Part shown: one piece after another, positions 27,101 to 49,040 of the stretch
Layout: the number at the start of each line of letters is the position of its first letter
Numbering within the stretch: the stretch's first letter is position 1
Origin: Orbicella franksi
Lineage: Eukaryota
Length of the DNA: 64,000 nt
Assembly (NCBI GenBank): GCA_964199315.1
Contig: OZ116707.1
Location: 3,162,001-3,226,000 of the forward strand
Reading direction: 5' to 3'
Position numbers and translations under genes: made by a program
Notes under the pieces: model-generated
Database searches by the model: none
What the model was told of the DNA's origin: nothing
Seen by the model: only the letters and a program-made list of their open reading frames with translations

Positions 27101-27850
27101 TTTTCCAGTGAGAGCGTTTATGTTGAAACTTCTTATTTGCATATCCGTGCAAAGTGTCAAAGAAGTTGCTATTCGCATCATTTAAATGCCCATGATCTGA
27201 AAGTTTGCTTGAATTAAATGAATGGGAGAATGAATAGCTAAACTGTGGTAGAGAACAAGTCAAACATTTCCAGTCTGCTTGAAAGTTGTGAAGTCTTTTA
27301 GTGTTGTCCCTTCGTAGCCCCACACACTTGCCGTGATAGCTTCTTTTGCAGCCTTTGCATAATATGGCCGCCTGATTCTTCCTGACAGTCTTGTCGCAAG
27401 AAGAACACTTCGGCTTTGCGGTCGGGCCCAGGTTAGGCTCAATATCATGATGTAGGGCAACATCTGAAATCCATAAGCACATGGATCCACGTTTGGTCCA
27501 TTTGGTTTGAGCTGTCCTGATTCTGGACTGGTTTTGAGTTGTCGCTCGCTTGAAGACATTTGGTTTGTTTGACAATGCGGCGCTCGAGTTTAAACTCTCT
27601 AATGAGTAATTAATTATTTTTGGTGAATTCTTTTCGACACCGGTTTTCCATGACACAAAGATACAAAATAAGAATATAGCAGAAATAAGGCGATTTAAGC
27701 GACTCACTTGCATGTCCTCGACCAACATAACTTTCTTTATGCCGAGAGCGACGCCTATTTATAAACCCAGCGCACAAAAGACTATAATGAAATGGTTATA
27801 ATCGCGGTCGTGCATGCGGCCAGAAACCACTGAATCACTGAATCACTTGT
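24190..27850 (-). mobile_element. Near full-length CR1-clade LINE with PHD finger, APE and RT; frameshifted
   Basis: PHD CSSC...CKGC...HGKC...CLTC (27093-27728); APE FNINAL/LQETK/DRKKGGGG/GDLN; RT NFRPV, LDLSKAF, GVLGPLLFNI, FADDT, KLLG; (CTATGT)n tail at ~24190. Confidence 0.9.
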
Positions 27851-28440: not shown

Positions 28441-29738
28441 TCAACTTTCTAACCCTAAAAGGTATGATGTTACCTGCCCTCACCATAAGTTACAAATTAT
28501 GGCAGTTACAGTACATGAAGGTTAAACAAACCCGATGACTATAATAAAGATTGACAATCTGTCAATGGGCATATTCAAAGCCCTTATAGCTTCTACTTTC
28601 ACTTGGGAAGCTCTCCCTAATTTTTTTCACACCACAAGATGGATTTGCAATTCTAATTTTTCGTCCCAGCTTCTTCTGAATCCAATATGTGTATTGCCTA
28701 TAGGCAACATGTCTGTATCTACTGACAGAGAGAAAGGAATGTAATCAGTAAATGTGAGCAGGGATCGAGGAAAAACTTGAATTCTAACTTGCCCTTCAGA
28801 CAAACAGTTCCGAGTCAAATTTTGCTTGCACAGGGCAAGTCTGAAAGTTTACTTTTTACCCAGGCAGTGAGGCCTGGGTTTAAATTTTGGCTCCATTTTT
28901 TTCCATGTTCAGTCACAAATCGCCGACTGGTCTCTAAAGCGCATGTGCCACCCGTGCTGCGTACAGCACATGGAATTTACAGCAGTTGTCGTTGTGAAAG
29001 TTAGCACGGATTCCATGAGTTCTAGGGCGATGAAATCACATACAAACGAACACACTGTTCAAGGTAGACCAACACTAAAGGATATTAAGCATTTTTGGAA
29101 CAGGTCACTGAAAGCCTTACGAGAGATCAATTTACGAGCAAACATTTTGACTGAATTTATCAAGAATCATGTTATACCAAAGGAGCCATCAACTGGGGCT
29201 ATCAACTCTTCAACTTGATAAAATGCATCTTCAGAAGCATCATCGTACTTTTAGATGTTATTGTGAACCAAGCAGAATCCAAGCACGAACTCAAGAATGT
29301 CTGAGCAACAAGAGCAGAAAGGTTAGAGAATTTGTTTACAAATGTACCTGTTCGAGTACACCTAAGTAAAACACTCTGAGAAACTAAACGATACTCTCTC
29401 GTTATTTTCTCGTAACAGAGTTGTGTCTTTACTAGAGTGAAACTCGTGTAGCGAATTATTGTACATTTAAGCCGCCAGAAACTAATACGTTGACCCCAGC
29501 AAACAATTCTTGGCTTGCACCGTCACGCAATCCTGATGCAATAAAAAATTTATTCGAAAACCATTTAGTGGATAAAATCAAGAAATTGTGATGTTATAGA
29601 AGATTAATAAAGATGACACTTCTCCAATTGTTTAAGTCTGTGCGTTTTCCCAAAACTAAGATATTCGTCGAAATATTTTGCACAAATTAACAGAGCCCAG
29701 TATGGAGCTGCCACGTTGGTGTACCTCTGCACAACACA

Positions 29739-30190
29739 AGTAGTGTAGCATGCTCTTAGGGGCAGTAGCCAATCAGCGGGCAGCAAAAAATGACGTAGCG
29801 GGCTCTCGACCAATCAGATTGCAGCATTTGCTGATGAATAAAAAAGTGGGCGTGGTTTGAAAAAAATTGATGAAGTCACAGGTCAAATGTCCAGATAAGG
29901 GTCGTCAGCTGCTCGCGTGCGTCAAGGTCAAAGGTCAGGGGTAGCCGTAGTCGTCAGCTGCTCACGTGTGGTCAAAGGTCAGGGGTAGCCATAGTCGTCA
30001 GCTGCTCGCACGCGTCAAGGTCAAAGGTCAGGGGTAGGTGTAGTCGTCAGCTGCTTGTGTGTGGTCAAGGGTCAGGGGTAGCCATAGTCGTCAGCTCCTC
30101 GTGCACGGTCAAAGGTCAGGGGTTGCTGTAGTCGTCAGTTACTCGCACGTCAAGGATTTTTGTGGGGTGCGTAGTGCGTAAAAGATCACG
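29739..30190 (+). repeat. Left terminal inverted repeat
   Basis: Reverse complement of 49442-49800, with two extra internal repeat units. Confidence 0.92.
29760..30150 (+). promoter_or_regulatory. Promoter-like TIR: two CCAAT boxes, GC/GT box, CRE-like sites, five DR1 + E-box repeat units
   Basis: CCAATCAG twice (~29769, ~29810); GGGCGTGG at ~29849; perfect AGGTCA-A-AGGTCA at 29925-37 and 30018-30; near-perfect DR1s at 29969, 30062 and 30106; CAGCTG in most units. Confidence 0.55.
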
Positions 30191-30213: not shown

Positions 30214-30650
30214 TTAATAAAGTTCTTTTAACGAGACAATGTACATGGTTTGTTGGGTGATTTTTTGCATCATGTAGAGGGCTTGTTCATCATTGGTTCC
30301 CCAGTGTACAAGAGATAATATCATTTCGTTGGGGGTGAGAAATTCTCCGTGCAGGCCAGAAGACGATTTGAAAATGCGTCCGAAGGGCCAGATATCGGAG
30401 AGGTCCGGTCTCAAGTACACTGGATAGGTAAATTGTCTGTTGAGAAAGATGAGCATGGCATCATTGTGGGGGTGAGGTTCTTCCAGACGGATGTTGCAGG
30501 CAAGGGGTCTCTGGAAAAAAGAGAGGGAAAAATTAAAAAAATTGCCCCAGCCAGGAATCGAACCTGGTTTTCTGAGGCCACAACTCAATGTCTTAACCAT
30601 TAGACCATGGAAGCACTTACCTCTTTATAACTTGCGTTTGCAGCTGTCAT
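30214..30650 (-). CDS. Spliced 108-aa hypothetical protein (MTAANASYKE|RPLACNIRLEEPHP...KELY) whose intron holds the tRNA
   Basis: Exon 1 is 30650-30621. The intron is 30620-30511 (GTAAGT...TTAAT...pyrimidine tract...CCAG). Exon 2 is 30510-30214 (297 nt). The junction is phase 0 and in frame. Confidence 0.65.
30543..30614 (-). tRNA. trnH-GUG: tRNA-His(GUG)-like gene (72 nt), intronic, imperfect acceptor stem
   Basis: GCTTCCA TG GTCT AATGGTTA AGAC A TTGAG TTGTGGC CTCAG AAAA CCAGG TTCGATT CCTGG CTGGGGC A. The D, anticodon and T stems pair fully; A and B boxes are intact; a T7 terminator follows. Confidence 0.85.
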
Positions 30651-39073: not shown

Positions 39074-39838
39074 ATGTTTAGTGCAGTGATCGGTGCAATA
39101 ATTACAGTGGAGTTGTTGAAATTGTCACGTAATGTGAATGGGCATCATGAACGTACGCGTGTAGGGCTAGCGTCAGCCCAAAAGCGACTTGTAAATCCGC
39201 ACAAGCATATCAGTCATTACTGTAGCATGGATTGTCCAGTCTGTAAGAAAACCTTCACCCAAAGAAAAGCCATGAATCGCCATAAGCAAGAAAAACACAG
39301 ACCGAATAGGACCAGGATACAGTGTAGCCTGTGCCCCAAGAGCTTTGCCCGCTTGGAACATTGTAAATGGCACCAGCGAGATATACACGAACCACCGCGC
39401 CACGAGAGCCCCGTTTGCCCACGCAAAAAATTCAAGCGAATGTGTCCCCAACTAAAAAAAGAGCTCACTGATCAAACCAAAGCCGTGAAAGTTTTGATGA
39501 GGGAAATAGAGCAGCTTGAAGCAGACCTGAGCAAACCAGAGCCGCCCACAGATCAAACCAAAGCCGTGAAAGTTTTGATGAGGGAAATAGAGCAGGTTGA
39601 AGCAGACCTGAGCAAACCAGAGCAGCTTGAAGTAGACCCGAGCGAACCAGAGCAGCTTGAAGCAGACCTAAGGGAAATAGAGCAGCTTGAAGCAGACCCA
39701 AGCGAACCAGAGCTGCCCATTACTGATGAGTTTGCTGCAGAAGTTGTAATGGAAAACACAGAACTCTTTGACTTGATGGAAGAATTTTTTAACCAGATTT
39801 CCTGGACGGAAGTATTTCAAATCATGTGTAACTTGTAA
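39074..39838 (+). CDS. C2H2 zinc-finger protein with acidic repeat tail (likely start ATG 39227)
   Basis: CPVCKKTFTQRKAMNRHKQEKH, CSLCPKSFARLEHCKWHQRDIH, a partial third finger, then EQLEAD repeats. Confidence 0.85.
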   Translation: MFSAVIGAIITVELLKLSRNVNGHHERTRVGLASAQKRLVNPHKHISHYCSMDCPVCKKTFTQRKAMNRHKQEKHRPNRTRIQCSLCPKSFARLEHCKWHQRDIHEPPRHESPVCPRKKFKRMCPQLKKELTDQTKAVKVLMREIEQLEADLSKPEPPTDQTKAVKVLMREIEQVEADLSKPEQLEVDPSEPEQLEADLREIEQLEADPSEPELPITDEFAAEVVMENTELFDLMEEFFNQISWTEVFQIMCNL

Positions 39839-40164
39839 AAAAAGCATTGTACTTTGTGTAGATCAATTAAAAAAAATTGGACTGTAATTCAATTTTGAGT
39901 GCATTTTTTATCGATCAAAAACAATGCCACGAGTTAGAACTAGAAGGCGCTAAAGAAATTATGAAACAACAAACTGGTCATCAACACAGCAGCCTCATGA
40001 TTTTTTTCCCACGAGAAAAAAAAAATTGGGGGGGTGATCAATAATGGCGTAATAAATGCGTCAGATTTTTTGAACAAATCAGGTACGCATGTGGGACTAG
40101 CGTCATCCCCTCAAAAACCTTTTACCAACTGAGCAAGCATTTTTTTTGTACCAGTTACTATAGC

Positions 40165-40575
40165 ATGGATTGTCCAGTCTGTCAGAAAACCTTCACCCAA
40201 AGAAAATCCATGAATTGCCATATGCAAGAAAAACACAGCCCGAATAGGCCTAGGATACATTGTAGCCTGTGCCCCAAGAGCTTTGTCCGCTTGGAACATT
40301 ATAAACGGCACCAGCGAGATATACACGAACCACTGCGCTACGAGTGTCCCGTTTGCCGACGCAAAAAATTCAAGTGACCAGACCATTTACGACGACACCA
40401 GCGAATCTGTCAACAACCGAACACACCTTTGCCCAGGGCAACGCAAGAACCACCCTTGGTATCTGTACAACTAGTCATTGATATCCAAAGTCCCAAGATT
40501 ATAGACGAAGCAAAACTTCAAGCATTAGCCAACGACATTTTGTCCGTGGCATTCTCATTTGTATTAAACCATTAG
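40165..40575 (+). pseudogene. Paralogous three-finger zinc-finger gene with premature TGA at 40375
   Basis: MDCPVCQKTF...CSLCPKSF...CPVCRRKKFK*PDHLRRHQRIC... continues in frame to TAG at 40573. Confidence 0.8.
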
Positions 40576-42449: not shown

Positions 42450-42664
42450 TACTGTTGCACACAAGTTTTGCAATTGTATATTTTACACCTTGTCCTTAAT
42501 TATATGTAATAAGCAAATAGTGTTTTTGCTATCATCTCTGTTATAATCTTGGCTTTAAATGCTTTTTTAATTAGTCCCCAGCACGCGCACAATAGTAAAA
42601 ACTTTATAGATCCGCTAACGCCCATATCCCCTTAAATTGGCCATGTCCTCCCTTTTTTTCATGC

Positions 42665-42850
42665 AAGCGAGCAGCTGACGACTCAACTACCCCTGACCTT
42701 TGACCGCATGTGAGCAGCTGACAACTACGGCTACCCCTGACCTTTGACTGCGCGCGAGCAGATCATGACTATGGCTACCCCTGACCTTTGACCACGAGCA
42801 GCTCACGACTACAGCTACCCGACCTTTGTCCGTGCGCGAGCTGCTGACGC
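42665..42850 (-). repeat. Internal copy of the TIR ~44-bp DR1/E-box repeat array
   Basis: GAGCAGCTGACGACT..CTACCCCTGACCTTTGACC units at 42694, 42738 and 42782, degenerate at 42821; same orientation as the right TIR. Confidence 0.9.
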
Positions 42851-42928
42851 CACCCGAGCCGCTGATGCACACGTATTACTAAAGGAGCGGCCTGACAAAA
42901 AATGGTACACTTGCCACGAGCGCTGATC

Positions 42929-42982
42929 ATGGCTGAGCTGACCGACGATGAGATGAATCACCCTATGGACCTATACGAAGCA
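42929..42982 (+). CDS. Putative 18-codon leader exon MAELTDDEMNHPMDLYEA
   Basis: ATG at 42929 and a phase-0 donor GCA|GTGAGT at 42983; the unspliced frame stops three codons later. Confidence 0.5.
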
Positions 42983-42999
42983 GTGAGTATCTAAAAAAA

Positions 43000-44800: not shown

Positions 44801-44824
44801 GCTTGACCTCATTAAAAAAAAGCA

Positions 44825-47800
44825 TTGTACGCGTCCTCAATCAGTGTGTCCTCATGTCTGCAGACTCCAAGACGAAGTTGGTCACTCTCCCCAGTGCCCA
44901 CGCCCAGACTCGACGTTCCACATCACACTCGTTCTCTGGACCAAGACCGCGACGACAACGACGACGACTGGATCTTCGATCCGCCCATTGACCAGATCTT
45001 AAACGAAAACAGTAAAAGATCACACAAGCAAGCCTTCTCGGACGATGACGACACGCAATATGGCGGCAGCGCCAACACCCATCTCCTAGACTTTGAACTG
45101 TGACCTCTAGGCGCCCCACGCAACTGGAGACATGTGGTGAACAAACGTAGATACGAAGCCACTCTGAAACAACACCGAGATGTGACTGCCAGGGACAACC
45201 TGGGCCAAGAACTGACCAGTGCCCTGCAACGATGCATCCAGCGACAAATCGACCAGGATCCCAGCCTGACTCCCCACTCCACCGTGCATATCACCATGGA
45301 GTCCAGTGCCTTCACGCACGCCTTCCAATCCGCCACCTTCAGCGTGCTCGAATTCCAAGAAGGCAGCCAAAGACTGGACACTTATCTCCAGTCTCTTGCG
45401 GCCAAACTGAACTCCAACCAGGACTTCACCCCAGACGACACCTTCACCGTGGAGACCACCTTCATCCAGACTCCCGGTCCTGGTAGTGGTCATGGCAAGC
45501 AATACCGACCCAGCAAAGCCGCCGTCCGGGGCATCCTCAAACGGTCATGCGTGACCATAAAAAACAAAGACCAACTCTGCTACGCGCACGCCATTGTCAC
45601 CATGAAAGCCTTGGCCGACACCAACAGCAATGCTCGAGATCACGATTATCACAATCTCGAACAGGGATGCCCTGTCCAAGAGCGATTGGTCAAGGAACTC
45701 CACCGCTTGGCTAACGTCCCCGAAGGACCTTGCAGCCTAAAAGAACTTGACATGTTCCAGGTGGCGCTACCCGGGTACCAGATCAAGGTCCTGTCCATCG
45801 ACCCGCCGCACATGATCATTTACACGGAACCCGTAGACTCGGACAAGTGCATTCTTCTCATCAAGGAGGACGGCCTCTACGACGGCTGCAATTCCTTCGG
45901 CGGGTTCTTCAGCAAATCATACTTTTGCCATGAACGCAACTGCAGCTACAACCACGATGACATTAAAAATCATCCGTGTAAAGGCAAATGGTGCCCCGCC
46001 TGCAAAAGAAAGGACTCTCCTGATTACATCGAAGCTAAAAAGACCAACAACTTTCCGTGTCCTTCTAAACTATGCACCCTCTGCCATCGTGACTTCTTCA
46101 ATGCTTAGTCTCCCACCTGCTACTACGGGACTCAAAAATCAAATCCATCTGCAACACCCACAAAAAGTGCCCAGACTGTTGTCATGTCTACCAACTAGGC
46201 GATAAAGTGCGTCACGGTGGCAATCATCGTGCCCCACAACATGTGTGCGGAAAGGGCGAGTGCCGCATTTGCGGCAAACAGGTCATGCTGTCCAGTCACA
46301 AATGCTTCATCCAATGCATCCCCGAAGAAGACCAATCCAAAACCAAGAGGGTCAATCGTGACCAGGTCAACAGCCGTCCCTTTAGTGAACCCTCAGCGCG
46401 TGATCCCGATCGTCGTGTGGTGGTAAACAGAGATCCTCTCCAGGTCTACGCCGATTATGAAGCCACCGTGGACCAGGAGGGAGTGCAATCGCCCATCCTC
46501 CTCTGTGCCGAGATGGACGAAGACGACGAGGAAGTGTCCTTTTACAGACCCGACTGCACCACCCAATTCTTCTACTGGCTAGAGGCAATAGGCATGGACC
46601 AAGACTGTGACGATCAGGACGTCATCGTCATCTTCCACAACGCCAAGGGCTACAACGGCATGTTTCTCCTTGACTACTGTTACCATCATCACCGAGAAGT
46701 CACCAACCAAATCACCATTGGTACCAAAATCCTCTCCTTCAAGACGGACCGCCTGACCTTCAAGGACCCGCTCTGCTTTCTTCCCATGCCACTGGCCAAC
46801 TTTCCCGCCACCTTCGGCATCCAAGAATTGACCAAGGGTTTTTTCCCTCGTCTCTTCAACACCCTAGAAAACCAAGAGTACCGGGGACCCATGCCACCAA
46901 CCTCCAGCTACAATCGAGACGGTATGTCTGCCAAGAAAAAATTCGAATTCGAGCGCTGGTATGCCAACAAGGTCCACAATAACTAAACCTTCCATCTGAA
47001 AAGGGACATGGAGGCTTACTGCATCAGCGACGTGAAGCTCCTCAAAGCAGGCTGCCAGAAATTCCAACAGCAGTTCAAGCAAAAGGCCAGCTTTAACCCC
47101 ATGGAAAAATGCTACATGGTCGCCTCTTTGTGCCACCGGTTCTGGTGCAAGAAACTACTCACTCCCGACACCATCGCCTCCGAACCTCCTGGCGGCTGGC
47201 ACGGGGCTCAGTCCAACCAGTCCGCCAAGGCCTTCAATTGGCTAGCATGGCAGGAACACCTTCGTCGTCACAGCCCCAACAACGACAAGCCTCGTGCAGA
47301 CCACATCAAGCATGCTGACAATGGGGGTGAGCAACGAGTGGCAAATGTCCTGGTAGATGGCCTGGATGTACACAACACCGTGTACCAATTCCACGGCTGT
47401 CTCTGGCACGGGTGTCCTCGCTGTTTCCCCTGCCAACGGGACAGATATCCCATCTGCCACACCGATCGCACCCTAGAAGAAGTCTACGAGCACACGCTAA
47501 AGAAACAGGCCCTTCTGAAGCAGCACAGCCACCATCTCAAGATCATGTGGGAGTGCGATTGAGATCGGCAGGTCAAGACCAAAGAGGCCCTCCAATGATT
47601 CTTGGCCACCTACCAGAAAGTGGACCCCCTAGAACCGCGTAATGCCTTCTTTGGTGGCAGAACCACTGCCGTGCGTCCTCACCACTCCGTCAACCAGAGC
47701 CAGGCCAAACAAATCAAATACGTGGACGTGACTTCCCTGTACCCGTGGGTCAACAAGACTTGCGAATACTCCGTTGGACATCCCGAGATCCTCACCAACC

Positions 47801-49040
47801 CCACCGACCAAGACATCCACCACTACTTCGGCATGGCCTACATTGACATCCTTCCACCTCCACACCTTTACCATCCTGTGCTACTGCATCGCCAGGCCGG
47901 TAAACTCACCTTTCCTCTGTGCCGCTCCTGCGTCCAAGACCAAATGCCACTTCCTCAGCGGGACAAATTGTGGCGGTGCTCGCACACGGAGACTCAATGC
48001 GCCTTGTGTGGAACTTGGTACACGCCTAAAATTCAAGAAACTGTTTGACAGGGGTACATCATCCTGCACATTCATGAGGTGTGGCATTTTCCCCCAAAGC
48101 AAAGACGCAAGAGTCTCTTTGCCGACTATGTCAACACCTGGCTAAAAATCAAACAAGAATCCGCTGGGTACCCCAGCTGTTGCCTCACCCCAGATGACAA
48201 ATTACTCTACATACGCCAATACAAAGAACAAGAAGGTATCTCCCTCGACACCACCATGATCCAGAAAAATCCCGGCCGGAAAGCCATGGCCAAACTCACG
48301 CTCAACTTCTTCTGGGGCAAGTTCGGAGAAAACCTCCACAAGAAACACACGGAAACTGCCACATTGCCAGCTGAACTCTTCGGTTTGGTATCCAACAGCT
48401 TTCACGACATCCGAGCCATCTGGATCTGCTCCGACGACGTGCTCGAAATAGATTACCTAGACCTGCACGAGAACCAAATCGATAATGGGCACGTCAACAT
48501 CTTCGTGGCCGCCTTCACCACCTGCTGGGCCCGTCTCAAGCTCTATTCGTATCTTGACCAACTGAAGCAACAAGTGCTGTACTGCGACACCGATTCCATC
48601 GTCTACTCCCACAAACCCGGTCAAGCTGACATTCCCCTAGACGACTACCTGGGCGACATGACCAACAAGCTGGACGCTGACGATTACATCGTTGACTTCA
48701 CTTCGGCCGGAGCCAAAAATTACGGCTACAAGACCAAACTCGGCAAAGTCTGCTGCAAAGTGCGAGGATTCACTCTCAATGTGCGCGGCTCCCAACAACT
48801 CAACTATGACGTCATAAGAGAAAACCTACTGGAAGAGTTGACCAATCCGCTCGACCAACGAAGGAACATTCCTGTCGTCAACCCCTACTTCTTCACTCGT
48901 GATCCCGCCAGCAAACAGGTCCGAGTGGGACCCCGCACCAAACAGTACGGACCTACCCTTACGGTTACCAGTGGAACTGACTGACTGAATTAGACGATGC
49001 CAACATGGACAACATGGAGACCCTGATGGAGCTGTTGTAG
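44825..49040 (+). pseudogene. pPolB: Protein-primed family-B DNA polymerase (Polinton-type: TP/vOTU-like N-terminus, Zn fingers, exonuclease, Vsr-like insert), with stops and frameshifts
   Basis: NKDQLC; ExoI YADYE; ExoII FHNAKGY; ExoIII YCISDV; FHGCLWHGCPRC/WECD; FFGGRT; motif A DVTSLYP; motif B KLTLNFFWGKFG; motif C YCDTDS; KNYGY; KVRG. The terminal YPYGY is in a shifted frame after an internal deletion. Confidence 0.95.

Follow-up and report, generated by a model that had tools for sequence, protein, structure and literature searches.

The locus analysed here is closest to the Maverick/Polinton elements, whose hallmarks include an AGTAGT end motif and a target duplication (PMC8097293; papers are given by PMC identifier, each cited for the sections consulted). 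A coral survey reports Polinton expression, with no regulatory motifs in those sections (PMC11131425), and the consulted parts of the literature (including PMC11131425, PMC8502044, PMC8097293, PMC6431247 and PMC8532177; subscription papers, Repbase entries and supplements lay outside this scope) describe no nuclear-receptor sites or motif grammar in Polinton ends. Sites for host factors in the terminal repeats of a virus are already known: the adenovirus inverted terminal repeat (ITR) holds a core origin together with NFI, NFIII/Oct-1, Sp1 and ATF sites (PMC5717082). HNF4alpha and COUP-TF bind the enhancers and promoters of hepatitis B virus (HBV), where they compete: HNF4 activates and COUP-TF represses (PMC7077322). 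Among human receptors, a canonical DR1 of the type found in the window is the form preferred by COUP-TF2 and RXR, both with a reported preference for the 3′ half; HNF4 has a specific motif, xxxxCAAAGTCCA, and CAAAGTCCA is bound by HNF4 and not by RXR or COUP-TF2, the latter two being favoured by the canonical 3′ half (PMC3384313).

The window, by which we mean the whole 64,000-nucleotide stretch of Orbicella franksi DNA analysed, contains an element spanning 29739–49800, both ends of which carry AGTAGT, an (AGT)2 end motif (Table 1). It resembles Maverick/Polinton elements, which are common in stony corals, in these ends, in terminal repeats of a few hundred bases and in its polymerase B gene (PMC8097293, PMC11131425, PMC8502044); the putative 6-bp target duplication is near-perfect, with 5 of 6 bases agreeing. 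Unlike those elements, the window copy yielded no integrase, protease, ATPase or putative capsid ORF. The two terminal repeats agree at 328 of 362 aligned bases; of the 34 differences, half fall at CpG, and the left-end CRE and CArG are mutated relative to the right end. DNA_pol_B_2 matches were obtained in three polymerase fragments, two of them above the cut-off, and the broken polymerase is 64–71% identical to that of an intact sister; at least 130 polymerase matches occur in the genome (130 of 237 candidates scored). Sister C12 has an integrase, an adenovirus-type protease and an A32-like ATPase by Pfam, which left its capsid label unconfirmed; its integrase, ATPase, protease and putative capsid ORFs have no match in the window element. 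Comparison of the intact sister's ORFs with the window element gave matches to the polymerase and two small ORFs only. The DR1-bearing sister C4 matches the integrase and putative capsid-region ORFs, and also has protease-like and ATPase-like ORFs. The window element is a decayed deletion derivative of a Polinton, not an autonomous member; this copy is a fossil, and the module proposed below would have acted in its active ancestor. A search of a viral contig collection gave no polymerase relative and no match to the DR1 unit. Four RNA runs have contigs that cover the element, mostly at 85–99% identity; these contigs therefore mostly reflect sister copies. Alignment of contigs from runs labelled "coral metagenome", a label that was the only habitat evidence taken from runs with small word shares, and an anthozoan-like set of receptors make a stony coral the likely host.

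Table 1. Features of the element in the window (positions are those of the window)
Feature	Position	Strand	Details
Left target-site duplication, AACACA	29733–29738		Right copy AACAAA at 49801–49806, 5/6 match
Left terminal inverted repeat	29739–30190	+	AGTAGT end
Left terminal repeat motifs		+	CCAAT boxes 29768 and 29809, CRE half-site 29791, GC box 29848
Left array, five 44/49-bp units	29901–30150	+	DR1 cores 29926, 29970, 30019, 30063, 30107
Left-array CAGCTG sites	29906, 29955, 29999, 30048		
tRNA-His(GTG)-like gene within the element	30543–30614	-	
Internal array, four units of the terminal-array repeat	42663–42849	-	Exact cores 42694–42705, 42782–42793
Probable promoter and first exon preceding the polymerase (predicted)	42874–42988	+	Degenerate TATA box
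Protein-primed DNA polymerase B gene, several broken frames	44816–48984	+	
AT-rich tandem array, ~68-bp units, polymerase end to right terminal repeat	49104–49426		
Right terminal inverted repeat	49440–49800	-	CCAAT 49772 and 49731, CRE 49670, GC box 49692, CArG 49650
Right array, three units	49478–49640	-	DR1 cores 49516, 49560, 49604

The terminal repeats hold five cores on the left and three on the right of the form GGTCA-A-(A/G)GGTCA, with a period of 44/49 bp, as the original prediction had it. The site is a canonical DR1, with two AG(G/T)TCA half-sites at one-base spacing: three of the eight cores are perfect, the other five differing at the first base. The perfect form AGGTCAAAGGTCA stands at 29925, 30018 and 49604–49616, each time within TCAAGGTCA (29922, 30015 and 49619). 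Only three of the eight cores have a purine as first base, the remaining five beginning with T or C. A recurring G-to-T change yields AGTTCA, which the AG[G/T]TCA consensus allows; variation at the first base together with an unvarying 3′ half is consistent with the 3′-half preference reported for RXR and COUP-TF2 in work on human receptors (PMC3384313). The remaining unit content is less regular than described: the TGACG half-site follows seven of the eight cores and CAGCTG six. The pairing of DR1 with E-boxes does not hold generally among relatives: CAGCTG is present in 4 of 11 sister ends and is not enriched among clustered ends (4/45 versus 2.9), and the 38-bp units of C8 keep the DR1 while mostly lacking the E-box, so an obligatory pairing was ruled out. 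The number of units per array varies from 1 to 6, and the DR1 lies 185–368 bp in from the terminus.

It had also been claimed that the DR1 core is better conserved than the rest of the unit. This is true against all spacer bases (1/96 versus 12/159 changes, p=0.017) and fails against non-CpG spacer (1/96 versus 4/120, p=0.26), also in larger sets: twelve window units gave 3/143 versus 5/178 (p=0.49) and 23 units gave 7/275 versus 13/342 (p=0.26), with 0.42 distinct variant alleles per core column against 0.40 in non-CpG spacer. These counts left out the 38-bp units, three degenerate edge units and a length-variable GC tract, and the array units are young and related, which makes the test weak in both directions. 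The apparent core conservation is a CpG effect, and after this control within-array conservation was dropped as functional evidence.

DR1 arrays are restricted in distribution. A 16-mer pattern has 23 matches genome-wide against 6 for its reversed control, with 22 of them spread over four elements and the last lying in unrelated sequence; a single DR1 unit is present in a fifth element, and two metagenome contigs represent the same subfamily, with three right-end units. The strict DR1 occurs in 4 of 45 clustered terminal sequences against 0.05 in 200 shuffles, more than chance gives for such sequences, with the four coming from only two lineages, and the long-open-frame polymerase families of this genome have none. 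Among 69 polymerase-downstream stretches a DR1-like word was found in three, in one of these outside the terminal repeat. With the DR1 inside the element in just 2/69, absent from most families and at no fixed distance from the end, a general origin signal was rejected, and with it the suggestion that the repeats control replication as a general role. The half-site reaches further: among 11 diverged clade ends AAG(G/T)TCA is present in 10 and the full DR1 core in 5, and CAAGGTCA, in 8, is outdone among 8-mers by the CArG words alone. For plain half-sites there is no enrichment (33 of 45 ends versus 27.6). All DR1-array copies examined are decayed. L176 (G000:C8:10069800-10079200) is a remnant of 9 kb in which the polymerase 3′ end is duplicated in inverted orientation; it has 38-bp DR1 units, six on the left and four on the right, mostly without the E-box. 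L144 has tandem units with TTAGGG-like words about 1 kb downstream of its polymerase match.

Other host-factor motifs are far more general. After clustering of 93 end sequences into 45 (the clusters are related, and some automatic termini are possibly wrong), CCAAT was found in 34 clustered ends, CRE in 24, ETS in 19, USF in 18, CArG in 14, YY1 in 11 and octamer in 8, counts reached by none of 200 shuffles and compared with 0–3 for reversed decoys; the motifs were picked after viewing the sequences. The proposed adenovirus-style recruitment of host factors by the ends is thereby upheld at the level of predicted sites. CCAAT is positionally fixed, at +31 in 45 of 63 ends. Like the adenovirus ITR, this terminal repeat belongs to a linear replicon with protein-primed DNA synthesis and is rich in host transcription-factor sites (here motifs), namely CCAAT at +31 with CRE, GC box and octamer motifs. 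Unlike the ITR, for which the sections consulted describe no DR1 (PMC5717082), this repeat has a DR1 185–368 bp in, variable in number, subfamily-specific and recurring at an internal promoter. The DR1 does not occupy the fixed, near-terminal, family-wide position of an adenovirus-type auxiliary origin site, which CCAAT at +31 fits; by this analogy CCAAT is the better counterpart of the adenovirus NFI and Oct-1 sites (PMC5717082).

The internal array was overlooked in the original prediction. It has the same orientation as the right-end array and stops 25 bp before a TATA box, degenerate in the window and intact (TATAAAA) in sister copies, after which come a short exon and the polymerase region. 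The exon, opened by an ATG at 42929, is acidic and has a GT donor-like site at 42983, and in sister C12 (L165:9219-9760) a pyrimidine-rich AG acceptor lies just inside the polymerase ORF start; exon, donor and acceptor suggest a spliced polymerase mRNA. Among the 15 of 53 window joints listed in RNA contigs there was no GT-AG joint linking the short exon with the polymerase, nor was one listed in C12; RNA contigs cannot reveal transcript starts or absence, and splicing accordingly stands as a prediction.

The unit of the end recurs at the promoter in all five clade members tested, in three versions: the window element and sisters C4 and C15a have one unit common to the terminal repeat and the site directly upstream of the TATA box and first exon, and sisters C13 and C15b have different units, each again at both places. 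The scores are 59–178 against a background maximum of 30. Outside the clade such sharing, with a score of its own above 30, was found in 2 of 8 elements with the first exon in the stretch; the comparison covers 13 of 26 elements, those whose upstream stretch showed the first exon. The presence of the internal array speaks for a role in transcription, less for one in replication. The SV40 72-bp repeats and retroviral U3 repeats are tandem viral enhancer repeats, and the arrays described here are like them in being variable copy-number modules of candidate factor sites by an early promoter; the factors and replicons differ. In other subfamilies the place just before the TATA box is occupied by unrelated tandem arrays, so array formation there does not depend on the motif. 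Examples are L244, L246, L251 and L252, with unrelated units (~47 bp with a GC box; ~62 bp) in tandem directly upstream of TATA. L243 and L165 have terminal-repeat pieces of other subfamilies, one a whole AGTAGT end, upstream of the polymerase promoter.

The host does have NR2-type receptors, as had been assumed from cnidarians in general: we found 16 zf-C4 DNA-binding domains, including COUP-TF-, HNF4- and TR2/4-like ones. Comparison with solved structures covered four of the 16, giving best matches to COUP-TF1 (149 bits, next 110), HNF4alpha (138, next 103) and TR4 (111, next 106), the fourth domain being NR1/4-like with no clear assignment. The HNF4-like domain carries the Asp and the Arg to which HNF4 owes its specificity (PMC3384313). 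RXR has been reported absent from Nematostella and from a coral survey, and COUP-TFs generally repress (PMC2749838). The likeness to HBV is that of a viral control region with NR2-family sites, here predicted (PMC7077322); the differences are that the viruses are unrelated, that binding is shown there and predicted here, and that the sites here form tandem arrays in the terminal repeats of an integrated element.

A second Polinton clade carries an HNF4-type site. It is separate in polymerase identity (38–49%) and stands apart on a midpoint-rooted tree of 53 fragments. The metagenome loci considered were the best 80 of 154, and all loci of this clade come from one metagenome assembly; it has 37 loci, of which the 32 with at least 450 bp downstream were counted. 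An HNF4-type DR1, AG(T)(C/T)CAAAGT(C/T)CA, lies within 1 kb in 25 of these 32 (L106-L163), pointing inward every time; two more loci have the site further out and one has a variant. The strict CAAAGTCCA was found 23 times inward and never outward, and in 0 of 24 coding controls. Motif-versus-flank identity (0.93 versus 0.42) is inflated by pattern selection, and all 9-mers were therefore ranked instead. The top two of this unbiased ranking are AAAGTCCAA (25/32) and CAAAGTCCA (24/32), both outranking the ETS, CCAAT and CRE words; the median identity of these clade ends is about 0.49. The site is some 260–600 bp from the right terminus, its distance to the polymerase varying from about 110 to 1500 bp, and it keeps the 13-bp form with two half-sites. 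A coding explanation of the motif was rejected, there being no consistently open frame through it on either strand. A search of this genome did not find the clade: the pattern has 16 matches here against 28 for its reversed control, and 0 of the 16 have a match to the polymerase C-terminus within 1.5 kb. The HNF4-type site of the second clade is the stronger case for a receptor site, and the window array the weaker. L124, L126 and L143 have an additional canonical or near-canonical DR1 nearer the end.

We lean, with little more than even confidence, towards reading the window repeats as a subfamily-specific, enhancer-like nuclear-receptor module, at which predicted binding of NR2-family receptors of COUP-TF or TR2/4 type would tune transcription and not replication. 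Control of the element by host orphan nuclear receptors, the core of the original prediction, is thus retained on sequence grounds for transcription and given up as a general replication role. The DR1 would have arisen, via a 7-bp duplication, from an ancestral half-site (C/T)CAAGGTCA that sister subfamilies still have in single form; the DR1 unit may then have been amplified by slippage or unequal exchange, and copied between the end and the internal promoter by recombination or conversion. COUP-TF- or TR2/4-type receptor dimers would bind the DR1, activating or repressing: as HNF4 and COUP-TF compete on HBV (PMC7077322) and COUP-TFs generally repress, the module could act with either sign. 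We counted in favour of function the motif-rich context, the promoter placement, the depth of the half-site, the host receptors and the HNF4-type site of the second clade. Counted against it were a core no more conserved than non-CpG spacer, its full form in just 5/11 clade ends and inside just 2/69 polymerase-downstream stretches, its absence from families with long open polymerase frames, the unrelated arrays before the TATA box in other subfamilies, the lack of enrichment of plain half-sites, the weak sharing between end and promoter outside the clade, the ease with which a DR1 arises by duplicating AAGGTCA, and the fact that the second clade is from a single metagenome assembly and was not found in this genome.

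Some of these points belong equally to a neutral account, which we hold to be unlikely: the DR1 would be a by-product of 7-bp AAGGTCA slippage, amplified and copied with no selection on receptor binding, in a recombination-prone terminal region that would also be the source of copying to the internal site. It would accommodate the equal conservation of core and non-CpG spacer, unit numbers from 1 to 6, the unrelated arrays at the same promoter spot elsewhere, the whole end fragments captured upstream of the polymerase in other elements and the decay of all DR1-array copies examined. It does less well with a half-site that persists in 10/11 diverged ends while the flanks change, with neighbouring motifs that are strongly enriched host-factor sites, and with an HNF4-type DR1 conserved in the second clade against a background identity of about 49%. 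Extended half-sites are bound by monomeric receptors, and a single receptor on (C/T)CAAGGTCA or AAAGGTCA might be what matters, the DR1 being incidental. The greater reach of CAAGGTCA (8/11 clade ends, against 5/11 for the full core), the missing first purine in five of the eight window cores and the host's NR1/4-like domain of no firm assignment agree with this, but the 38-bp C8 units and C45, having lost the E-box, still show two half-sites one base apart, and the second clade likewise keeps both half-sites; we judge the monomeric reading quite unlikely. Very improbable, in our estimate, is an element-encoded protein that binds the units as iterons and, specifically for each subfamily, couples use of the origin with autoregulation of the polymerase. 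Subfamily-specific units do recur in the end and the polymerase promoter, and the element does carry zinc-finger ORFs; however, the conserved words match host-factor motifs, including the published HNF4-specific one, no element protein is linked to the unit, and most families are without such a shared unit.

Returning to the host-receptor module, a broader claim is possible, which we hold with distinctly less than even confidence: coral polintovirus lineages may set cell tropism via swappable host-factor modules at their ends and polymerase promoter, and may have recruited NR2 receptors at least twice independently, with a COUP-TF/TR2-4-type DR1 array and with an HNF4-specific site. If true, this would be hepatitis-B-like logic in a cnidarian virus. 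A grammar of host-factor sites with lineage-specific receptor modules allows direct tests of how Polintons are activated and of their cell tropism. The same sequences offer candidate sites, shaped by natural selection, for the cnidarian receptors HNF4, COUP-TF and TR2/4, about whose function little had been reported as of 2009 (PMC2749838).

Several further features of the window and its relatives were noted. An intact sister has tRNA-His and tRNA-Met genes (L164:909-980, 1444-1515), and another sister has tRNA-Met (L246:862-933). The window element carries as cargo a duplicated C2H2 zinc-finger ORF with internal repeats (39074–39838 and 40045–40377). Between 42114 and 44720 there are several short, partly broken ORFs starting with a WDWLPxE motif, which may be F-box-like; the two compared with Pfam gave no match. 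Beyond the borders of the element, the window has ORFs of Tc3-like transposase, reverse transcriptase and PHD-finger type at 21279–22013, 25246–26640 and 27093–27728.
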